NCBI GenBank assembly: GCA_001785865.1
Contig: MFUZ01000006.1
Span: 176,880-240,879 of the forward strand
DNA: 64,000 bases
Source: Candidatus Nomurabacteria bacterium RIFCSPLOWO2_01_FULL_41_18
Lineage (GTDB): Bacteria; Patescibacteriota; Minisyncoccia; Phycocordibacterales; UBA9973
Direction: 5' to 3'
Shown here: positions 1 to 41,640 of the stretch, in pieces
Position numbering within the stretch: the first letter of the stretch is position 1
Layout: the number at the start of each line of letters is the position of its first letter
Program-made: the position numbers and the translations under genes
The notes under the pieces: model-generated
The model's database searches: none
Seen by the model: only the letters and a program-made list of their open reading frames with translations
Told to the model about the DNA's origin: nothing

Positions 1-586
1 CTTTCTTATATTCATTGATTTGTTTCTGAGCATGAGAAAAACTGCTAGTGTCTTCAATGTTGGCAAAGTGCGCATAGATCCCAGAAACTTTTATATTGTT
101 GCATTTTTTTATTTCTGAAAATAAACTCGGCAACTCACTCCATAAAAACCCTTCACGTCCAAGATACGCATCTATGGGAATATGAATCTCTTGTATTTTG
201 TTTAATTTTTTAGATACTTTATTTAATTCTTTTAATTGCCCTAATGAGAAAACAGTCAAAATGCAACCTAATTTTATTGCTCTAGATAAATCTGAATTTT
301 CCACGTATCCTAAAACCAAAGTTTTCTTTTTGCTTACTTTTTGTAAAAGTTCTAATTCTTCCACACTATTTAATTGAAAATAGTTTACATGTGGCTCCAA
401 AATTTTAGCAATTTCATTTTGCCCATGCCCGTAAGCGTTCCCCTTTATAGCCACAGAAAGTTTAGTCCCCCCGCCACGGCGGGCAGGCTTTTTTACTAAA
501 TTCCTAAACTGTTTGATGTTGCGAATCAAATTATTTTTAGAAAGTTCTATGTACGATAGAGGCAGCTTTTTTTTAATATCTTGCAT
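1..586 (-). CDS. alr: Alanine racemase, N-terminal ~195 aa (partial; continues beyond the window start)
   Basis: The reverse-strand ORF starts at ATG 586 and is not in the ORF track because it runs off the edge. Its translation MQDIKKKLPLSYIELSKNNLIRNIKQFRNLVKKPARRGGGTKLSVAIKGNAYGHG... contains the PLP-lysine motif (V/I)K(A/G)NAYGHG. It lies directly downstream of ddl. Confidence 0.7.
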   Translation of the reverse strand, partial: MQDIKKKLPLSYIELSKNNLIRNIKQFRNLVKKPARRGGGTKLSVAIKGNAYGHGQNEIAKILEPHVNYFQLNSVEELELLQKVSKKKTLVLGYVENSDLSRAIKLGCILTVFSLGQLKELNKVSKKLNKIQEIHIPIDAYLGREGFLWSELPSLFSEIKKCNNIKVSGIYAHFANIEDTSSFSHAQKQINEYKK

Positions 587-2930
587 TTTTAATAATTTTT
601 TCTAATAAATCTAATGGGAAAATTTTAGGACTTTCTGCTAGTGCTTGATGGTAAAGGACAGTCGAAGGAGTAAGAGCTGGTAGAGTATTAACCTCGATAA
701 TTATAAGAGCACCAGTTGTTGTATTCATAAAGGCGTCTATTCGTGCATATCCTTGAATTCCAATTTTGATAGCTAATTCTTCTGCTAAAACACAAGTTTT
801 GGAAACAATTTTAGGTTTTATAATTTCAATCGGTGGAGGGGTAATGTTTATACCCGTGCCACCCTGAAATTTTTCTTCTACGGAAAGTACTTCGCCTTCG
901 GCCACAGTCAAACTAGGATTAAAAGCGTGTAATTTATTATTTTCTTCTAAAATTCCAATAGTAACTTCCGCCCAGCCGTCTTTCCTTGTATATTTTAATT
1001 TATTTCCTTTGAAATGTATAATATCTGTTCTAACAAATTTCTCAAATAAAATTTCCTTTATCGCATGATTTGGCATTTCGATGATACTTTTCTGATTAGA
1101 TAAAGTCCCTGTAGGAATGAGGCTTTCATTTTTAAATAAATATTCTAAATAATTCTTTAAGTCAATTTCACTGTATAAATGAGCCACCCCAGTCGAACAT
1201 CCATCATCTTTGGGCTTTACTATCACAGTCTTTGAATCAAGTTCTGATTGGAGCAGATGCCAAAATTCTTTTATTCTGTCTATTTCTATGTCTTTCAAAA
1301 ATACAACTTTCTGTGAAGCAGTGCCTACTCCATTTATCCGTAAATTTCTTATAAATTCCCCTGTCGTAAATTTATCCATACAAAGACGGGAGGTTTTTTC
1401 ATCTGATCCGTTAAATTTTATCTCCTTATCTTGTAACGATTTTTGAAAATTACCATTCTCGCCATCCCCTCCATGTAATCCTAAAAATACAAACGGGGAC
1501 TTGTTTATAAAATCTTCAAAAGATATTTTTCTGGGCATAAAAAATGGTTCAGTTGCTTCTTCGTTTGAAATTAAAAGTTCATTTTTTACTTTTTCTATTA
1601 TATTCTCTGCATTTTTTTGGGTTACTTCAGCATTTTTAGCGTTAGTAATTATTTCTTCTACCGTATGGTTCAAGATCAGAGTGTATGGTAATTCCCACAC
1701 ATTGTTTTCAAAATCGAGCAAATACGGTTTCGGTTTATATATACTAGATTTACGCAATTTGAGCCATACATTAGTTCCACTCATGAGAGACACTTGTCTT
1801 TCCGATGTTTTTCCTCCAAAAATTACAGACACTTGTTTCTTTTCTCCTTCTTTTTGTTTTAAAGATTCTGAAAAATTTATTTTTTGTCTATTACAAGAGT
1901 TTTTAACGACATAACGTAATAAATCGCTATGACTCATGCCGATCCTTGAAGATTGTTGAAAAAGAAAACTATTTTGTTCCATACCTGACAAAGGATTAAA
2001 GTCAGAAAACCAAATTTCACCATTTTTAAGCAACCAACCATCGAAACGAGTAAAATCTTTCATGTCAAAAAGAGAAAACAGTTGCTTGGCTTGTGTTTGT
2101 ATTTTTTCAATTACTTCATTTGGGAACCTTGCTGGACAATGATATTTTACTTGGTTGGTTGGTAAATACTTTTTTCGGAAATCAAAAATCCTGCCTTCGT
2201 GATAAGCCATCTCTATTTCAGAAGGAACCAAGGCAACTGGCATACCGAGCTTGTTTTGTAATATTATGATTGTGAATTCCGTACCTTCTGCAAAAGGTTC
2301 TAGCACCACTCGAGTATCAATTCTTTTAGAGAAAAGAAGATTCACTTTTTCTACAGCTTCTTCCGGAGTATTCACAGAAAAAACTCCAATACTTGAACCA
2401 CTTGCTGCTGGTTTTACAATTGCACGTTTTACGTTATTTTTTATAAAAAACTCCTTGATTATTTTTTCGTTATCTTTAGAATATATTTTTAATAGAACAG
2501 AAGGAAGCGTAAAGAAACCTTTTTCTCGAAGAGTTTTATTTGCCTCATATTTATCGAAGGCCATTTTGCAAGCCTTACTGCTTGATCCAATAAAAGGAAT
2601 TTTATTTTTTTCTAAAAATGTTTGAATTTGTCCATCTTCACCAAATGCACCATGCATCGCAGAAAAAGTTATATCAACTGACTTTAAAAACTTCGCCAAA
2701 GATTTTTGACTTAAGGGTGAAGAATTTTTTGCTAATTTAAAATCAAAATCAGAAGGGTTATTAGAATAAAGATCAGAACAAGAAATTTTGTAAGCTCTTT
2801 TTTTTTGATCAAAATAAATTGGAACGATTTCAATATTTTCACTCGATAGATGATCGAGAACAGACCTAGCGGAATTTAATGATATTCCGCGTTCCAAAGA
2901 CGGACCGCCTGTAAGAAGTGCTATTTTCAT
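573..2930 (-). CDS. ddl: Tandem D-alanine--D-alanine ligase (two complete Ddl/ATP-grasp modules fused, 785 aa)
   Basis: The N-terminal half (MKIALLTGGPSLERGISLNSARSV...IVKPAASGSSIGV) and the C-terminal half (KQVSVIFGGKTSERQVSLMSG...IVKPKDDGCSTGVA...EVNTLPALTPSTV) each carry the Ddl signatures. Confidence 0.8.
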   Translation of the reverse strand: MKIALLTGGPSLERGISLNSARSVLDHLSSENIEIVPIYFDQKKRAYKISCSDLYSNNPSDFDFKLAKNSSPLSQKSLAKFLKSVDITFSAMHGAFGEDGQIQTFLEKNKIPFIGSSSKACKMAFDKYEANKTLREKGFFTLPSVLLKIYSKDNEKIIKEFFIKNNVKRAIVKPAASGSSIGVFSVNTPEEAVEKVNLLFSKRIDTRVVLEPFAEGTEFTIIILQNKLGMPVALVPSEIEMAYHEGRIFDFRKKYLPTNQVKYHCPARFPNEVIEKIQTQAKQLFSLFDMKDFTRFDGWLLKNGEIWFSDFNPLSGMEQNSFLFQQSSRIGMSHSDLLRYVVKNSCNRQKINFSESLKQKEGEKKQVSVIFGGKTSERQVSLMSGTNVWLKLRKSSIYKPKPYLLDFENNVWELPYTLILNHTVEEIITNAKNAEVTQKNAENIIEKVKNELLISNEEATEPFFMPRKISFEDFINKSPFVFLGLHGGDGENGNFQKSLQDKEIKFNGSDEKTSRLCMDKFTTGEFIRNLRINGVGTASQKVVFLKDIEIDRIKEFWHLLQSELDSKTVIVKPKDDGCSTGVAHLYSEIDLKNYLEYLFKNESLIPTGTLSNQKSIIEMPNHAIKEILFEKFVRTDIIHFKGNKLKYTRKDGWAEVTIGILEENNKLHAFNPSLTVAEGEVLSVEEKFQGGTGINITPPPIEIIKPKIVSKTCVLAEELAIKIGIQGYARIDAFMNTTTGALIIIEVNTLPALTPSTVLYHQALAESPKIFPLDLLEKIIKNARY

Positions 2931-2963
2931 ATTTTTTTGCAGAAAATGACCTTAAATCTGCCT

Positions 2964-3707
2964 TTACAGTATAGCACTATTTAGATTTTTAGGGAAGTTA
3001 GTTAAATTCTTATAACCATTTTTTGTTATCAACACCATATCCTCTATTCTTACCCCACCGAAACCTTTCAGGTATATTCCCGGCTCTATAGTCATCACAC
3101 ACCCCACAGGAATAATGTCTTCACTCTTTGGTTTAAAATTTGGCCACTCGTGAATGACAGTGCCGACTCCATGCCCAAGTCCATGTTTAAAATTATTTTT
3201 AAATTTCTTCGCCAAAAAACTTCTAGCAACTCTATCTACTACTTTTGCTTTCTTTTCCCCCTTACTCAACTTCGCTAAAGCACGATTCTGGGCTTCGAGA
3301 ACTACTTGATAAACTTTTTTCTGCTTAGCAGTAGGTTTGCCCCAAAAATAAGTGCGAGTCATGTCTGAACAATAATGATTTATTGTGCATCCAAAATCAA
3401 ACATGATTATATCCGCCCCGCCACGGCGGGTAAACTTTTTTAATTTAGTTTTTCCCGGATTGTGGTGAATATTCGCAGTATTTTTACCAAAAGAAACTAT
3501 TGGTGGAAAGGACAACACATTTACGCCATGGCGTAAATGTGTTTTTTTAATAAAATTTGCAATTTCAAGCTCTGTCACTCCATCCCGTAATTTTTCTATA
3601 GTCTTTTGCAAAACCTTCTCGCTTATCCTCTGCGCTTTTACAATATTTGCCAACTCTTTTTTACTTTTTACCGCCCGTACTTCGTGAATGAGTTTTGTTT
3701 TTTTCAT
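2964..3707 (-). CDS. map: Methionine aminopeptidase type I
   Basis: Metal-ligand motifs DFGCTINHYCSDMTRT, HGLGHGVG, TIEPGIY and RIEDMVLIT. It contains an in-frame GC-rich insertion coding FTRRGG. Confidence 0.9.
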   Translation of the reverse strand: MKKTKLIHEVRAVKSKKELANIVKAQRISEKVLQKTIEKLRDGVTELEIANFIKKTHLRHGVNVLSFPPIVSFGKNTANIHHNPGKTKLKKFTRRGGADIIMFDFGCTINHYCSDMTRTYFWGKPTAKQKKVYQVVLEAQNRALAKLSKGEKKAKVVDRVARSFLAKKFKNNFKHGLGHGVGTVIHEWPNFKPKSEDIIPVGCVMTIEPGIYLKGFGGVRIEDMVLITKNGYKNLTNFPKNLNSAIL

Positions 3708-18148: not shown

Positions 18149-19060
18149 TTAAACACTTGCTAATTTTTCTTCATGACTTTCGTGCTCTTCATGCTCCCCG
18201 CCTGAATGATCTTCAGATCGGGCAGGCTCGTGATCCTGCGATGCTATGGTGAAGTAAACTGTAGCGAGCAAACTGAATATCAATGCCTGAATGAGCCCGA
18301 TGAACACCTCCAGAAACAAAAACGGAGTCGGCAGGATATAAAGAAAAATTGCCCCCATAGAGGCCAATAACACTTCTCCAGCAAATACATTGCCAAAAAG
18401 TCGGAAAGAAAGTGATGCCACCTTTGCCATTTCTCCGATAAGCTCCAAAATACCTACGAAAAATGTAATCGGGGCAACAATTATGACATTTTTATCCTTG
18501 CGGAATTTCGTCACTATTCCTCCGAGCGCTTTTATATTAACATATTTATTGAAAATTTTCCAAATTCCTATAGTTATGATTCCAAAAATATTTGAAGCGA
18601 TAACTATAGCAATACTCAAGGCCAAAGTAGTGTTTATATCAGCTGTGCCAGCTCGAAAGATGGGAATAAAAACAGAATGTCCGGCCTCATTGGCTAAAAA
18701 TCCGACAGAACCGACAATGGGCAAAAGCCCCAGCCAATTGTTTACTAAAATAAAAACAAAAAGCGATATGACGAGAGGGAAAATTTTAAGGGTTATTTTT
18801 CTGTCATTTGTAACTTGATCGCAAAGTGAAAGCGCACCTTCTAAAAGAATTTCAAAAATGTGCTGAACTTTTCCCGGTATTTGTTTTAGGTTCTTTCGAA
18901 GCACCAAGCAAAATACGATAATAACCAAAACTGCGAGCCAAGAATTAAGTAACGAGTTTGTAATTTGAAAACTTCCAACATGGAAAACCGGTTCCGCGTA
19001 AATAGTAGTTTCGTGGACTGGTTCTACTTCAATATTTTGTTCTAAATTATTTGTTGCCAT
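18149..19060 (-). CDS. atpB: F0 ATP synthase a subunit with a His/Glu-rich C-terminal extension
   Basis: Subunit-a TM architecture. The tail reads ...HEPARSEDHSGGEHEEHESHEEKLASV. Confidence 0.85.
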   Translation of the reverse strand: MATNNLEQNIEVEPVHETTIYAEPVFHVGSFQITNSLLNSWLAVLVIIVFCLVLRKNLKQIPGKVQHIFEILLEGALSLCDQVTNDRKITLKIFPLVISLFVFILVNNWLGLLPIVGSVGFLANEAGHSVFIPIFRAGTADINTTLALSIAIVIASNIFGIITIGIWKIFNKYVNIKALGGIVTKFRKDKNVIIVAPITFFVGILELIGEMAKVASLSFRLFGNVFAGEVLLASMGAIFLYILPTPFLFLEVFIGLIQALIFSLLATVYFTIASQDHEPARSEDHSGGEHEEHESHEEKLASV

Positions 19061-38284: not shown

Positions 38285-39001
38285 ATGGCTAAGCTAATAT
38301 TTTTTGATACGGAGACCACGGGCAATGAACAGAAGGACTCCCTATGCCAAATTGCTTATAAAAGTGGTGATGAAAGTTTTACTGGCCTTTACAAGCCTCC
38401 ACTAAAAATTCCACCCGAAGCTTCTGCTGTACACCATATAACCAATAAGATGGTCGCCGACAAACCATCTTTTGCTGAAAGTGGGGATTTGTCTAAAATT
38501 AAAAAACTTTTTGAAGATAAAGACATCGTCGTCGTGGCTCACAACGCGCCTTTTGATTTGATGATAGTCGAAAAAGAAGGAATCAAGCCGCAAAAATTTA
38601 TTTGCACTTTACGGGTTGCCAGACATTTAGACCCAGAGGGAAAAATAGAAAGATATAACTTACAATATTTGCGTTACTTACTCGAAATAGAAATAGATGC
38701 CACTGCTCATGACGCGCTTGGTGATGTGTTGGTCTTAGAAAAACTTTTTGAGCGATTGAAAAATAAATTAATTCAGAGCGAGAATGTAAGCGAAGATGAA
38801 GCGATAAATAAAATGATTGAAATCTCTTCGCACCCTTCACTTCTGCGTTCATTCAACTTTGGCAAACATACTGGTAAAAAAATAGAAGAAGTAGCGAAAG
38901 TAGATAGAGGCTATCTGGAATGGCTACTAGCCCAAAAACTCGAAAGCGATCAAATAGATGAGGATTGGATTTATACGTTGAAACATTATTTGGGGAAATA
39001 A
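38285..39001 (+). CDS. DnaQ-like 3'-5' exonuclease with a C-terminal DUF3820-like domain
   Basis: Exo I FFDTETTG, Exo II VVAHNAPFDL, and C-terminus KHTGKKIEEVAKVDRGYLEWLL. Confidence 0.75.
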   Translation: MAKLIFFDTETTGNEQKDSLCQIAYKSGDESFTGLYKPPLKIPPEASAVHHITNKMVADKPSFAESGDLSKIKKLFEDKDIVVVAHNAPFDLMIVEKEGIKPQKFICTLRVARHLDPEGKIERYNLQYLRYLLEIEIDATAHDALGDVLVLEKLFERLKNKLIQSENVSEDEAINKMIEISSHPSLLRSFNFGKHTGKKIEEVAKVDRGYLEWLLAQKLESDQIDEDWIYTLKHYLGK

Positions 39002-40590: not shown

Positions 40591-41640
40591 ATGCAAATTC
40601 TTTGGATAATATTAGCTTTAGTTGCAGGAGTAACAATTGCCTATTTTGCTTTTGGGCGTAGAAAAGAAGAAAAGAAAGATGATAGTTTGGGGTTAAATTT
40701 AATACTCACTCAAATAAACGAACTTTCCAGAACTGTAGACAATAAAATCGGAGAATCGCATAAACAAGTCAACGAAAGTTTGAAATTCCATTCTAGCGAA
40801 TCAAATAAAATTATTAGAGATGTTACAGAAAGATTGACCAGATTGGACGAGACAAATAAACAAGTCATTTCTTTTGCAGACCAATTGCAAAGTTTGGAAA
40901 ATATTTTAAAGAATCCGAAACAACGCGGAATTCTCGGTGAATATTATTTAGAAACAGTTTTAAAAAATGTCCTTCCTCCCGGTAGCTACCAAATGCAATA
41001 CGAATTTGAAGATAAAACTATTGTGGACGCTGTAGTTTTCGTAAAAGATAAAATTATTCCCATAGACTCAAAATTCTCTCTGGAAAATTATAATAAAATG
41101 GTGGAAGAAAGGGATGCCGTAGAAAAGAAAAGACTAGAAGCAATCTTTGTGGGAGACTTAAAAAATAGAATCACTGAAACTGCAAAATATATTCAGCCAA
41201 CAAAAGGCACTACTGATTTTGCTTTTATGTTTATCCCCCACGAAGCTATTTATTATGATTTGCTCACAAATAAAGTGGGCGCGTTGGCATCGGAAGAAAA
41301 TGAGAACTTGATCCAACGCGCGGCAGGAAAATATAAAGTCATCATCACCTCCCCCACTTCATTCCTCGCATATTTGCAAACTGTCTTGCAAGGATTGAAG
41401 GCACTCAAAATAGAAGAATCCGCGAAAGAAATAATTAAAAAAGTGGAAGATTTGGGAAAACATTTAAAATCTTACGACGAATATCATAATAAACTCGGGA
41501 ATGCGCTCGGCACTGTGGTGAACCATTACAATGCTTCCAATAAGGAATTGAAGAAAATAGACAAGGATGTGCTCCGGATTGCTGGATCATCGCCGGAATT
41601 GGCATTATTAGAAGTCGAAAAACCCCGCCCGAACGACTGA
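40591..41640 (+). CDS. rmuC: DNA recombination protein RmuC
   Basis: N-terminal TM helix, a long coiled coil, and a C-terminal RmuC nuclease-like domain. It ends in TGA. Confidence 0.8.
   Translation: MQILWIILALVAGVTIAYFAFGRRKEEKKDDSLGLNLILTQINELSRTVDNKIGESHKQVNESLKFHSSESNKIIRDVTERLTRLDETNKQVISFADQLQSLENILKNPKQRGILGEYYLETVLKNVLPPGSYQMQYEFEDKTIVDAVVFVKDKIIPIDSKFSLENYNKMVEERDAVEKKRLEAIFVGDLKNRITETAKYIQPTKGTTDFAFMFIPHEAIYYDLLTNKVGALASEENENLIQRAAGKYKVIITSPTSFLAYLQTVLQGLKALKIEESAKEIIKKVEDLGKHLKSYDEYHNKLGNALGTVVNHYNASNKELKKIDKDVLRIAGSSPELALLEVEKPRPND

Follow-up and report, generated by a model that had tools for sequence, protein, structure and literature searches.

An 18-nucleotide terminator-like palindromic cassette inserted in frame in unrelated genes of Paceibacteria

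Two copies of a GC-rich hairpin in unrelated genes

We studied 64,000 nt of the genome of Candidatus Nomurabacteria bacterium RIFCSPLOWO2_01_FULL_41_18 (GCA_001785865.1; MFUZ01000006.1, positions 176,880-240,879 of the forward strand), referred to below as the window. Near its left end two unrelated genes on the minus strand each contain a short GC-rich hairpin that is translated in frame. These are alr, encoding alanine racemase (1..586; the N-terminal 195 codons of a gene that runs off the left end of the window), and a gene for a 247-residue, Xaa-Pro-peptidase-like member of the M24 peptidase family, identified by Pfam and PDB comparison (2964..3707). The preliminary description of this DNA had taken the second gene for map, encoding methionine aminopeptidase; it is a single-domain peptidase closest to Xaa-Pro dipeptidases (E 1e-48), with methionine aminopeptidase as a weaker match (E 1e-8).

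On the forward strand, CCCCGCCACGGCGGG lies at 469-483 and 3416-3430 and is followed in both places by four nucleotides and CTTTTTT, so that the full strings are ccccgccacggcggg-cagg-ctttttt (469-494) and ccccgccacggcggg-taaa-ctttttt (3416-3441). These had been described as an identical 26-mer and a perfect palindrome of about 75% GC. We find 22 of 26 positions identical (cagg versus taaa) and, in both copies, a 6-bp inverted repeat around a 2-nt centre (CCCGCC-AC-GGCGGG); the sequence is indeed GC-rich, with values of 93% for the repeat core and 58-69% for the whole 26-mers. The coding strand of both genes reads A6G, N4 and CCCGCCGTGGCGGGG in frame, encoding, as had been proposed, KK-x-x-RRGG. 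In alr, GTA AAA AAG CCT GCC CGC CGT GGC GGG GGG ACT encodes KKPARRGGGT (protein context ...NLV KK PARRGG GTKLSVAIKGNAYGHG), and in the M24 gene TTA AAA AAG TTT ACC CGC CGT GGC GGG GCG GAT encodes KKFTRRGGAD (...TKL KK FTRRGG ADIIMFDFG).

The repeated unit is best defined by the alr copy (470..487, minus strand; residues 34-39), the 18-nt prototype CCTGCCCGCCGTGGCGGG, or cassette E, whose unmodified codons are CCT GCC CGC CGT GGC GGG (Pro-Ala-Arg-Arg-Gly-Gly). It adjoins an A6G run (488..494, minus strand) made of the last base of GTA and the Lys-Lys codons AAA AAG; on the forward strand this run is the CTTTTTT tract that follows the hairpin. The M24 cassette (3417..3434, minus strand; residues 92-97) is a diverged copy, TTTACCCGCCGTGGCGGG, encoding Phe-Thr-Arg-Arg-Gly-Gly, and likewise adjoins an A6G run (TTA AAA AAG; 3435..3441, minus strand) that appears as a T-run on the forward strand. 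Shuffled sequences gave 0.01-0.18 expected copies of the motif per window against the two observed, which rules out a chance origin, and no third real copy was found in the 64 kb with up to three mismatches allowed. The motif is not an assembly artefact either, because the same locus with identical proteins recurs in at least six independent metagenome assemblies; variants are also present in diverged orthologues. Transfer RNAs were the only families matched in the Rfam search.

Insertion at a Lys-Lys/Gly junction

For each of Alr and the M24 peptidase, 120 orthologues were aligned with the query. The residues had been described as extra relative to homologues, and the alignments bear this out: solved homologues have a 6-residue gap at both places, as do most orthologues, the alr cassette being without counterpart in 114 of 121 aligned sequences and the M24 cassette in 101 of 121. 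The usual uninserted state (the slash marking the junction) is KLKK/GD in M24 and AKK/GTK in Alr. Between KK and G, 20 of the 121 M24 sequences have (P/F/L)(A/T)R(R/H)GG, and at the same type of junction 7 of the 121 Alr sequences have PARRGG or a 12-residue variant. The inserts are true in-frame insertions of six codons at Lys-Lys/Gly in a scattered minority of Paceibacteria (Patescibacteria); they are not an ancestral segment that all relatives share in AT-rich codons, since most relatives lack the residues altogether.

Uninserted orthologues already encode KK/G as AAA AAR GGN, and the A-run therefore belongs to the target rather than to the insert. The run had previously been counted within the element; its adjacency to the hairpin stands, but it represents a pre-existing pair of lysine codons. 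The empty alr site of L037 (L-numbers are labels of retrieved loci) reads TTA GTA AAA GGA GGG ACT, with flanks matching those of the filled site in the window, TTA GTA AAA AAG (E) GGG ACT. Comparison of filled and empty sites (AAA AAG/E/GGN) reveals no target-site duplication beyond one ambiguous G. In AlphaFold models both inserts lie, as had been expected, in loops, that is in coil flanked by secondary-structure elements, where model confidence falls locally: the alr cassette is in predicted coil with a predicted local distance difference test (pLDDT) score below 50, and the M24 cassette in predicted coil preceding strand 99-105.

Insert carriers are scattered on neighbour-joining trees, which are poorly resolved: at least 13 state changes are needed for the 20 M24 carriers and at least 6 for the 7 Alr carriers; 7 of the M24 carriers form one clade. 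Each gene varies independently of the other, L037 having the insert in M24 only and L050 and L056 in alr only. Two empty sites have K-G-G at the exact cassette position in place of the usual K-K-G, namely alr of L037 (AAA GGA GGG) and the M24 gene of L050 (422-1147; AAA GGA GGC). These may be excision footprints.

The same cassette in other genes and lineages

Unmodified E is identical at 18 of 18 positions in alr of the window, in alr of L056 and L057 (77% and 70% amino acid identity, respectively) and in the M24 gene of L058 (75%), while third-codon positions in the 90-nt flanks of those alr genes are 47-60% identical. In L058 it occupies the same site as the diverged M24 copy of the window. 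The latter is an older variant (TTTA for CCTG) common to the window and L037; because of this divergence and sharing, the alr copy of the window was not derived from its M24 neighbour.

Pattern scans of 185,579 species genomes and of JGI metagenomes with an exact 21-base pattern returned 33 and 8 matches, respectively. The same 24-25-mer was found in the same frame in the C-terminal tail of a cytidylyltransferase (three diverged orthologues), in the N-terminal extension of S11, in the N-terminal tail of another protein (L040) and in the N-terminal tail of a GlgB-like protein of Chitinophaga, the single cross-phylum case. Most of the remaining genome matches are ordinary terminators with extended stems in other phyla, which share the core because the search pattern demanded it. 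These counts speak against a high-copy dispersed repeat. Matches within coding sequences (CDSs) never exceeded one per genome in the species-level scan, and the scan of IMG/VR found no M24 relatives. Among 120 cytidylyltransferase orthologues, most end in KKAKLKKKK before the stop codon, and seven have a cassette directly after KK: PARRGG, LARRGG, SVRRGG, PTKRGG, the decayed LALRGK and two longer forms.

All six coding contexts share one reading frame (KK-PARRGG); in the remaining two frames the cassette would encode KKACPPWRG or KSLPAVAG. A constant frame, and a location in exposed loops and tails, are what one would expect if a functional basic peptide, KKPARRGG (RGG-like), had arisen convergently and the hairpin potential were incidental. 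We give this idea hardly any credence: the copies agree codon for codon where flanking synonymous sites are saturated, the enzymes are unrelated, most orthologues lack the residues, and the longer variants described below preserve the hairpin ends and no peptide property.

A family of longer hairpins

Inserts of 18, 21, 36 and 39 nt were seen. The longer relatives (21-39 nt) begin and end alike, CCTGCC(C)GC...G(C)AGGCGGG, with a middle that varies; the ends CCTGCCCGC and GCAGGCGGG are conserved across variants, and the cassette forms an inverted repeat over its full length. Every long variant is a longer hairpin or a tandem one whose stem lies directly against the A-run. In L049, CCTGCCCGC-N9-GCGGGCAGG forms a 9-bp stem adjoining A7, and L048 and L050 have 36-nt hairpins. 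L051 has a second insertion, GCCTGCC-N5-GGCAGGC, straight after the A-run and upstream of a CTTG-type E. One long form is present in two unrelated genes, as PARNATHNVAGG in Alr and PARNAAHNAAGG in the cytidylyltransferase, and a second recurs as PASSAGG-LARRGG in M24 and PASPAGG-PARRGG in the cytidylyltransferase (both cytidylyltransferase forms are known from protein). The variant arms CCCACC..GGCGGA are common to M24 of L052 and to L040, L054 has a compensatory change from C-G to T-A and an enlarged loop, and two of the cytidylyltransferase copies (LALRGK and PTKRGG) are decayed. Nested insertion of one cassette into another would fit L049 (A-B-A'-B') but not L048 or L050; because of this misfit, and because the forms recur in other genes, the long variants are more readily regarded as members of the family. 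Conserved ends, a variable middle and the recurrence of variants across genes therefore point to a family of copied elements, not to independent mutation.

The same observations bear on a conservative scenario, in which each gene acquired its insert once, in an ancient event, and vertical inheritance, repeated precise hairpin-mediated deletion and spread by interstrain homologous recombination produced the present distribution, copy identity being held by selection on nucleic-acid structure or on a binding site. Palindromes are prone to deletion, the clade of seven M24 carriers conforms to inheritance, and decayed and compensated copies point to age. The scenario leaves unexplained, however, why the same 18-mer and the same 36-39-nt variants are found in at least three unrelated genes and in a Chitinophaga genome. 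Pristine copies also agree in their loop and spacer positions, which a constraint on the hairpin would leave free to drift, and the second cassette of L051 was inserted again right behind the A-run. We consider this scenario quite unlikely.

Several further hairpins were observed in the course of these comparisons. L040 (minus strand, N-terminal region of a 405-codon open reading frame (ORF)) has two cassettes 15 nt apart in a basic tail: KK-LARRGG-KK is followed by LAHRSLGGGG, an E-like hairpin with a loop larger by 6 nt and the arms CCCACC..GGCGGA. The cytidylyltransferase C-terminal tails P0242, P0337 and P0358 contain a second type of insert, NPSS[KR]AKLTTG[RH]RK. A 9-bp inverted repeat (CCTTCGTCC...GGACGAAGG) could encode its P-S-S...G-R-R, which hints at a further family of hairpin cassettes. 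Just outside the window, in an aldehyde dehydrogenase gene of the same genome (L001, 17764-19146), a hairpin CCTGCCTGCACAGGCAGG with CCTGCC/GGCAGG arms lies in sense orientation at about 18777-18794, where the loop is 1+5 residues longer than in solved homologues and the 3' arm is native (AGYFY). Since part of its stem is native sequence, its status as a putative cassette is ambiguous.

In Chitinophagales, AAAAAAGC[GT]TGCCCGCCGTGGCGGG[GT] recurs in A-rich intergenic DNA. Four loci of this hairpin belong to the Saprospiraceae metagenome-assembled genome CAZNYK01 (L019, L028, L030 and L035); it is also present in L041, in L046, between hsp20-like and dnaJ-like genes, and in Chitinophagaceae (L009, L016 and L038). 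Tandem or CRISPR-like (clustered regularly interspaced short palindromic repeat) arrays do not underlie the Saprospiraceae copies: Tandem Repeats Finder was negative, and the copies are A-rich intergenic hairpins. The intergenic hairpin may be a small dispersed repeat of Chitinophagales with the same core as the Patescibacteria cassette.

Terminator geometry on the antisense strand

A feature overlooked in the preliminary description is the geometry of the element, which is that of an intrinsic terminator in antisense orientation. On the forward strand, antisense to both genes, each copy is a hairpin, with a GC-rich stem of at least 5 bp and a short loop, followed by a T-run supplied by the lysine codons. 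In the long variants a stem of 7-9 bp adjoins T6-7 without a gap (0-nt spacer). In the prototype, 5 nt (CAGGC) separate stem and T-run, or 0-3 nt if weak extra pairs are counted; extra pairs in alr, and in M24 an alternative 8-bp stem, narrow this spacer in part. The latter, TATCCGCC/GGCGGGTA (3410..3432, forward strand; -12.0 kcal/mol, z -2.0), uses the native codons GCG GAT ATA and ends 3 nt from the T-run. The window contains five antisense sites within CDSs where a hairpin is followed by a T-run, and three of them are in alr and the M24 gene. Fold z-scores range from -2.0 to -5.5 on the forward strand, compared with -0.65 to -1.0 on the sense strand at the two cassettes.

The third of these sites is a perfect 30-nt palindrome followed by T7 within the M24 gene (3514..3550, forward strand; sense strand IKKTHLRHGVNV; -17.2 kcal/mol, z -5.5), again with no spacer. 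Relative to L037, the palindrome itself (3514-3543) differs by four clustered nucleotide changes, all of which perfect the inverted repeat; it arose by substitution, not insertion, and two or three of the four changes alter an amino acid, including Y to H and S to R. Clustered changes that perfect an inverted repeat are the classical mark of quasipalindrome template-switch mutagenesis, and the four changes therefore represent a template-switch signature. On the evidence of these substitutions, hairpin-templated copying operates in this lineage.

This geometry fits a terminator-hairpin origin of the cassettes and a possible role in stopping antisense transcripts. It also raises the alternative that the cassettes are selected antisense terminators, whose hairpin and U-run would have been kept, and perhaps fixed, to stop spurious antisense transcription through the M24-ddl-alr cluster of an AT-rich genome, sequence identity between genes being secondary. 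Stem and T6-7 do stand in order at three sites in two genes; in the M24 lineage a stem nearer the T-run evolved, and the third hairpin arose there through amino-acid-changing substitutions. Moreover, stem changes on one side in L052, L053 and L040 remain paired, as G.U, in the antisense RNA only. The counter-example is L049, with the opposite wobble. The prototype would also be a weak terminator, because of its 5-nt spacer and T-runs only 5-6 long; promoter-like sites are at chance level; the distribution is patchy with decayed copies; and identical 18-mers are beyond the reach of convergent selection. As an account of why the cassettes are there we hold this to be possible but rather doubtful; as a statement of function, it is compatible with copying from terminator hairpins. 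The constant orientation and frame could equally be explained by filtering, because a copy in sense orientation would terminate the mRNA.

Read on the sense strand, the same elements recall a programmed -1 ribosomal frameshift signal, which would reduce how much full-length Alr and M24 peptidase is made. The signals of dnaX and of IS3-family elements consist of such a heptamer and a hairpin. A_AAA_AAG is in X_XXY_YYZ phase in both window genes (GTA AAA AAG and TTA AAA AAG), a GC stem of 5-6 bp lies 4 nt further downstream, and the phase is the same in all coding contexts found. Against this, the heptamer is lost in L053 (A_AAA_AGG) and weakened in L057 (T_AAA_AAG); with 4 nt of spacer in the prototype and none in the long variants, a spacing of 5-9 nt is not conserved; and A.C mismatches break sense-strand pairing in several variants. 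The -1 frames meet a stop within 8-13 codons and would give useless truncated products (KKACPPWRGD and KKVYPPWRGGYNHV), the cytidylyltransferase copy lies two codons ahead of its stop, and the third hairpin follows ATT AAA AAA, out of phase. Heptamer loss, spacing, broken sense pairing and early stops rule out frameshifting as a conserved feature, and as a general explanation we find it very improbable.

Proposed origin of the cassettes

We place somewhat more belief than doubt in the explanation that these inserts form a family of ultra-short, terminator-like palindromic cassettes, placed by a templated process at A-runs of unrelated Paceibacteria genes. The 18-nt prototype would have been copied repeatedly by a copy-like process, each time immediately 3' of A5-7(G) on the coding strand, after Lys-Lys codons and usually before a Gly codon. 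The cassettes most likely derive from intrinsic-terminator hairpins; copying would proceed through microhomology at the A/T-run (and GGG), by template switching or by target-primed copying of a terminator. Survival of a copy would depend on Pro-Ala-Arg-Arg-Gly-Gly falling in a surface loop or in the tail of a protein, and would be confined to the orientation that keeps the hairpin and U-run out of the mRNA, while the antisense hairpin and U-run might be able to stop antisense transcripts. Insertion would be recurrent rather than a single ancient event per gene.

Several points weigh against this explanation. Copy number is low: the 64 kb contain two copies and each gene a single site, with only one further in-CDS match in Patescibacteria among the species genomes scanned and no more than the eight metagenome matches. 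A scan of 40 of the 68 window ORFs brought up no donor terminator, transposase, reverse transcriptase or HUH enzyme, and the fetched loci yielded no transposase. Given the poor resolution of the neighbour-joining trees, a few ancient insertions combined with precise hairpin-mediated losses and allele exchange are compatible with the data, and copy identity could reflect selection at the nucleotide level instead of youth.

A bolder version holds that the family is active, trans-mobilised or self-templating, and originates from terminator hairpins copied onto A-runs. At 18 nt it would be the smallest mobile DNA yet seen in bacteria, spreading through target-primed reverse transcription of the hairpin-U tail of a terminated RNA or through microhomology-mediated template switching. 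We think this unlikely; if it were true, terminators would seed in-frame protein loop insertions across Patescibacteria and possibly Chitinophagales. The proposed copying from terminator hairpins, if correct, would itself tie intrinsic terminators to the way in which protein indels arise in reduced, AT-rich genomes. It also raises a testable question about the control of antisense transcription in Patescibacteria. For annotation of indels in this phylum, the cassette offers a searchable signature: Lys-Lys, then Pro-Ala-Arg...Gly-Gly, encoded by CCTGCC...GGCGGG.

Comparison with known palindromic elements

No account of an 18-nt hairpin cassette lying in frame in Patescibacteria genes was found in the literature that could be searched, and nothing directly relevant on palindromic insertions in this phylum, on intragenic antisense terminators or on Rho in Patescibacteria. 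The preliminary description had likened the motif to Rickettsia palindromic elements (RPEs), which are palindromic, lie in frame in unrelated housekeeping ORFs, encode a tolerated peptide and are patchily distributed among relatives (PMC10969869). The likeness in behaviour is supported, the cassettes being in frame in Alr, the M24 peptidase, the cytidylyltransferase, S11 and the GlgB-like protein, with the conserved peptide KK-PARRGG. Membership in an RPE family is not: RPEs are about 150 bp long and form ten families with 44 copies in R. conorii (PMC10969869), whereas the cassettes are 18-39 nt, GC-rich and terminator-like, always lie beside an A-run, belong to another phylum and number two in 64 kb. 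The contrast drawn here with RPEs is one of size and, within the window, of copy number.

The closest analogy is with the GC clusters of yeast mitochondria (e.g. GC42), short GC-rich hairpins in a very AT-rich genome that occur sporadically at homologous sites (PMC4478555). Their stems are more conserved than synonymous sites, sub-families have an identical 5' end and a variable downstream part, and clusters merge or nest; the mechanism of transposition is unresolved, with an RNA-mediated route under discussion (PMC4478555). The cassettes similarly are sporadic GC-rich hairpins in an AT-rich genome with stems conserved above the synonymous rate. GC clusters measure 32-42 nt, number in the dozens in an 80-kb genome, lie mainly between genes or in introns and target AG (PMC4478555); the bacterial cassette is half that size, lies in frame within CDSs, has an A-run/G target and exists in few copies. 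Our best reading is that the cassettes behave like RPEs and mitochondrial GC clusters and belong to neither family. If the proposed origin holds, the phenomenon of selfish palindromes that enter ORFs in frame and vary protein loops would extend to a new phylum and down to much smaller elements, with an 18-nt unit several-fold shorter than any described RPE or MITE (miniature inverted-repeat transposable element) and at or below the shortest repetitive extragenic palindromic (REP) sequences.

REP sequences are extragenic and high-copy, unlike the Patescibacteria cassettes, all of which are intragenic (within CDSs), with two in 64 kb. REPs and REPINs, mobilised by REP-associated tyrosine transposases (RAYTs), are imperfect, GC-rich palindromes of 20-40 nt for which functions in termination and mRNA stability have been proposed; one end of a REP is marked by GTAG or CGTC (PMC3733652). 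Both strands of AAAAAAG-CCTGCCCGCCGTGGCGGG lack this tag, and no RAYT came to light in the window. SPRITE, a dispersed repeat near gene 3' ends, combines a terminator-like stem with a T-rich tract and AAAA/TTTT ends, and no target-site duplication has been established for it (PMC3049150). It sets a precedent for terminator-like repeats behaving as dispersed elements. SPRITE is AT-rich and intergenic, with an 18-bp stem, less than 200 bp overall and 30 copies per genome (PMC3049150), in contrast to a 5-9 bp GC stem inside coding sequence and antisense to the gene. The cassette shares terminal inverted repeats with MITEs and differs from them in lacking a target-site duplication. Quasipalindrome template switching has its likeness in the 3514-3543 palindrome; this process copies nearby sequence, and alone would leave the same 18-mer in unrelated genes unexplained.

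Other features of the window

Between alr and the M24 gene, a 785-residue protein (573-2930, minus strand) consists of two complete D-Ala-D-Ala ligase modules fused in tandem, with the Pfam N and C domains each matched twice. Among relatives, L050, L054, L056 and L057 have a single Ddl of 321-330 residues, and the fused form is present in L048 and L051. ExoX-like and RmuC proteins have been associated with keeping rearrangements or template switching at inverted repeats in check, and the window encodes both an ExoX-like 3'-5' exonuclease (38285-39001, forward strand) and an RmuC-family protein (40591-41640, forward strand). Gene orientation changes from almost exclusively minus to plus near 38.2 kb and switches again near 51.5 kb, and the sign of the GC skew changes around both points.

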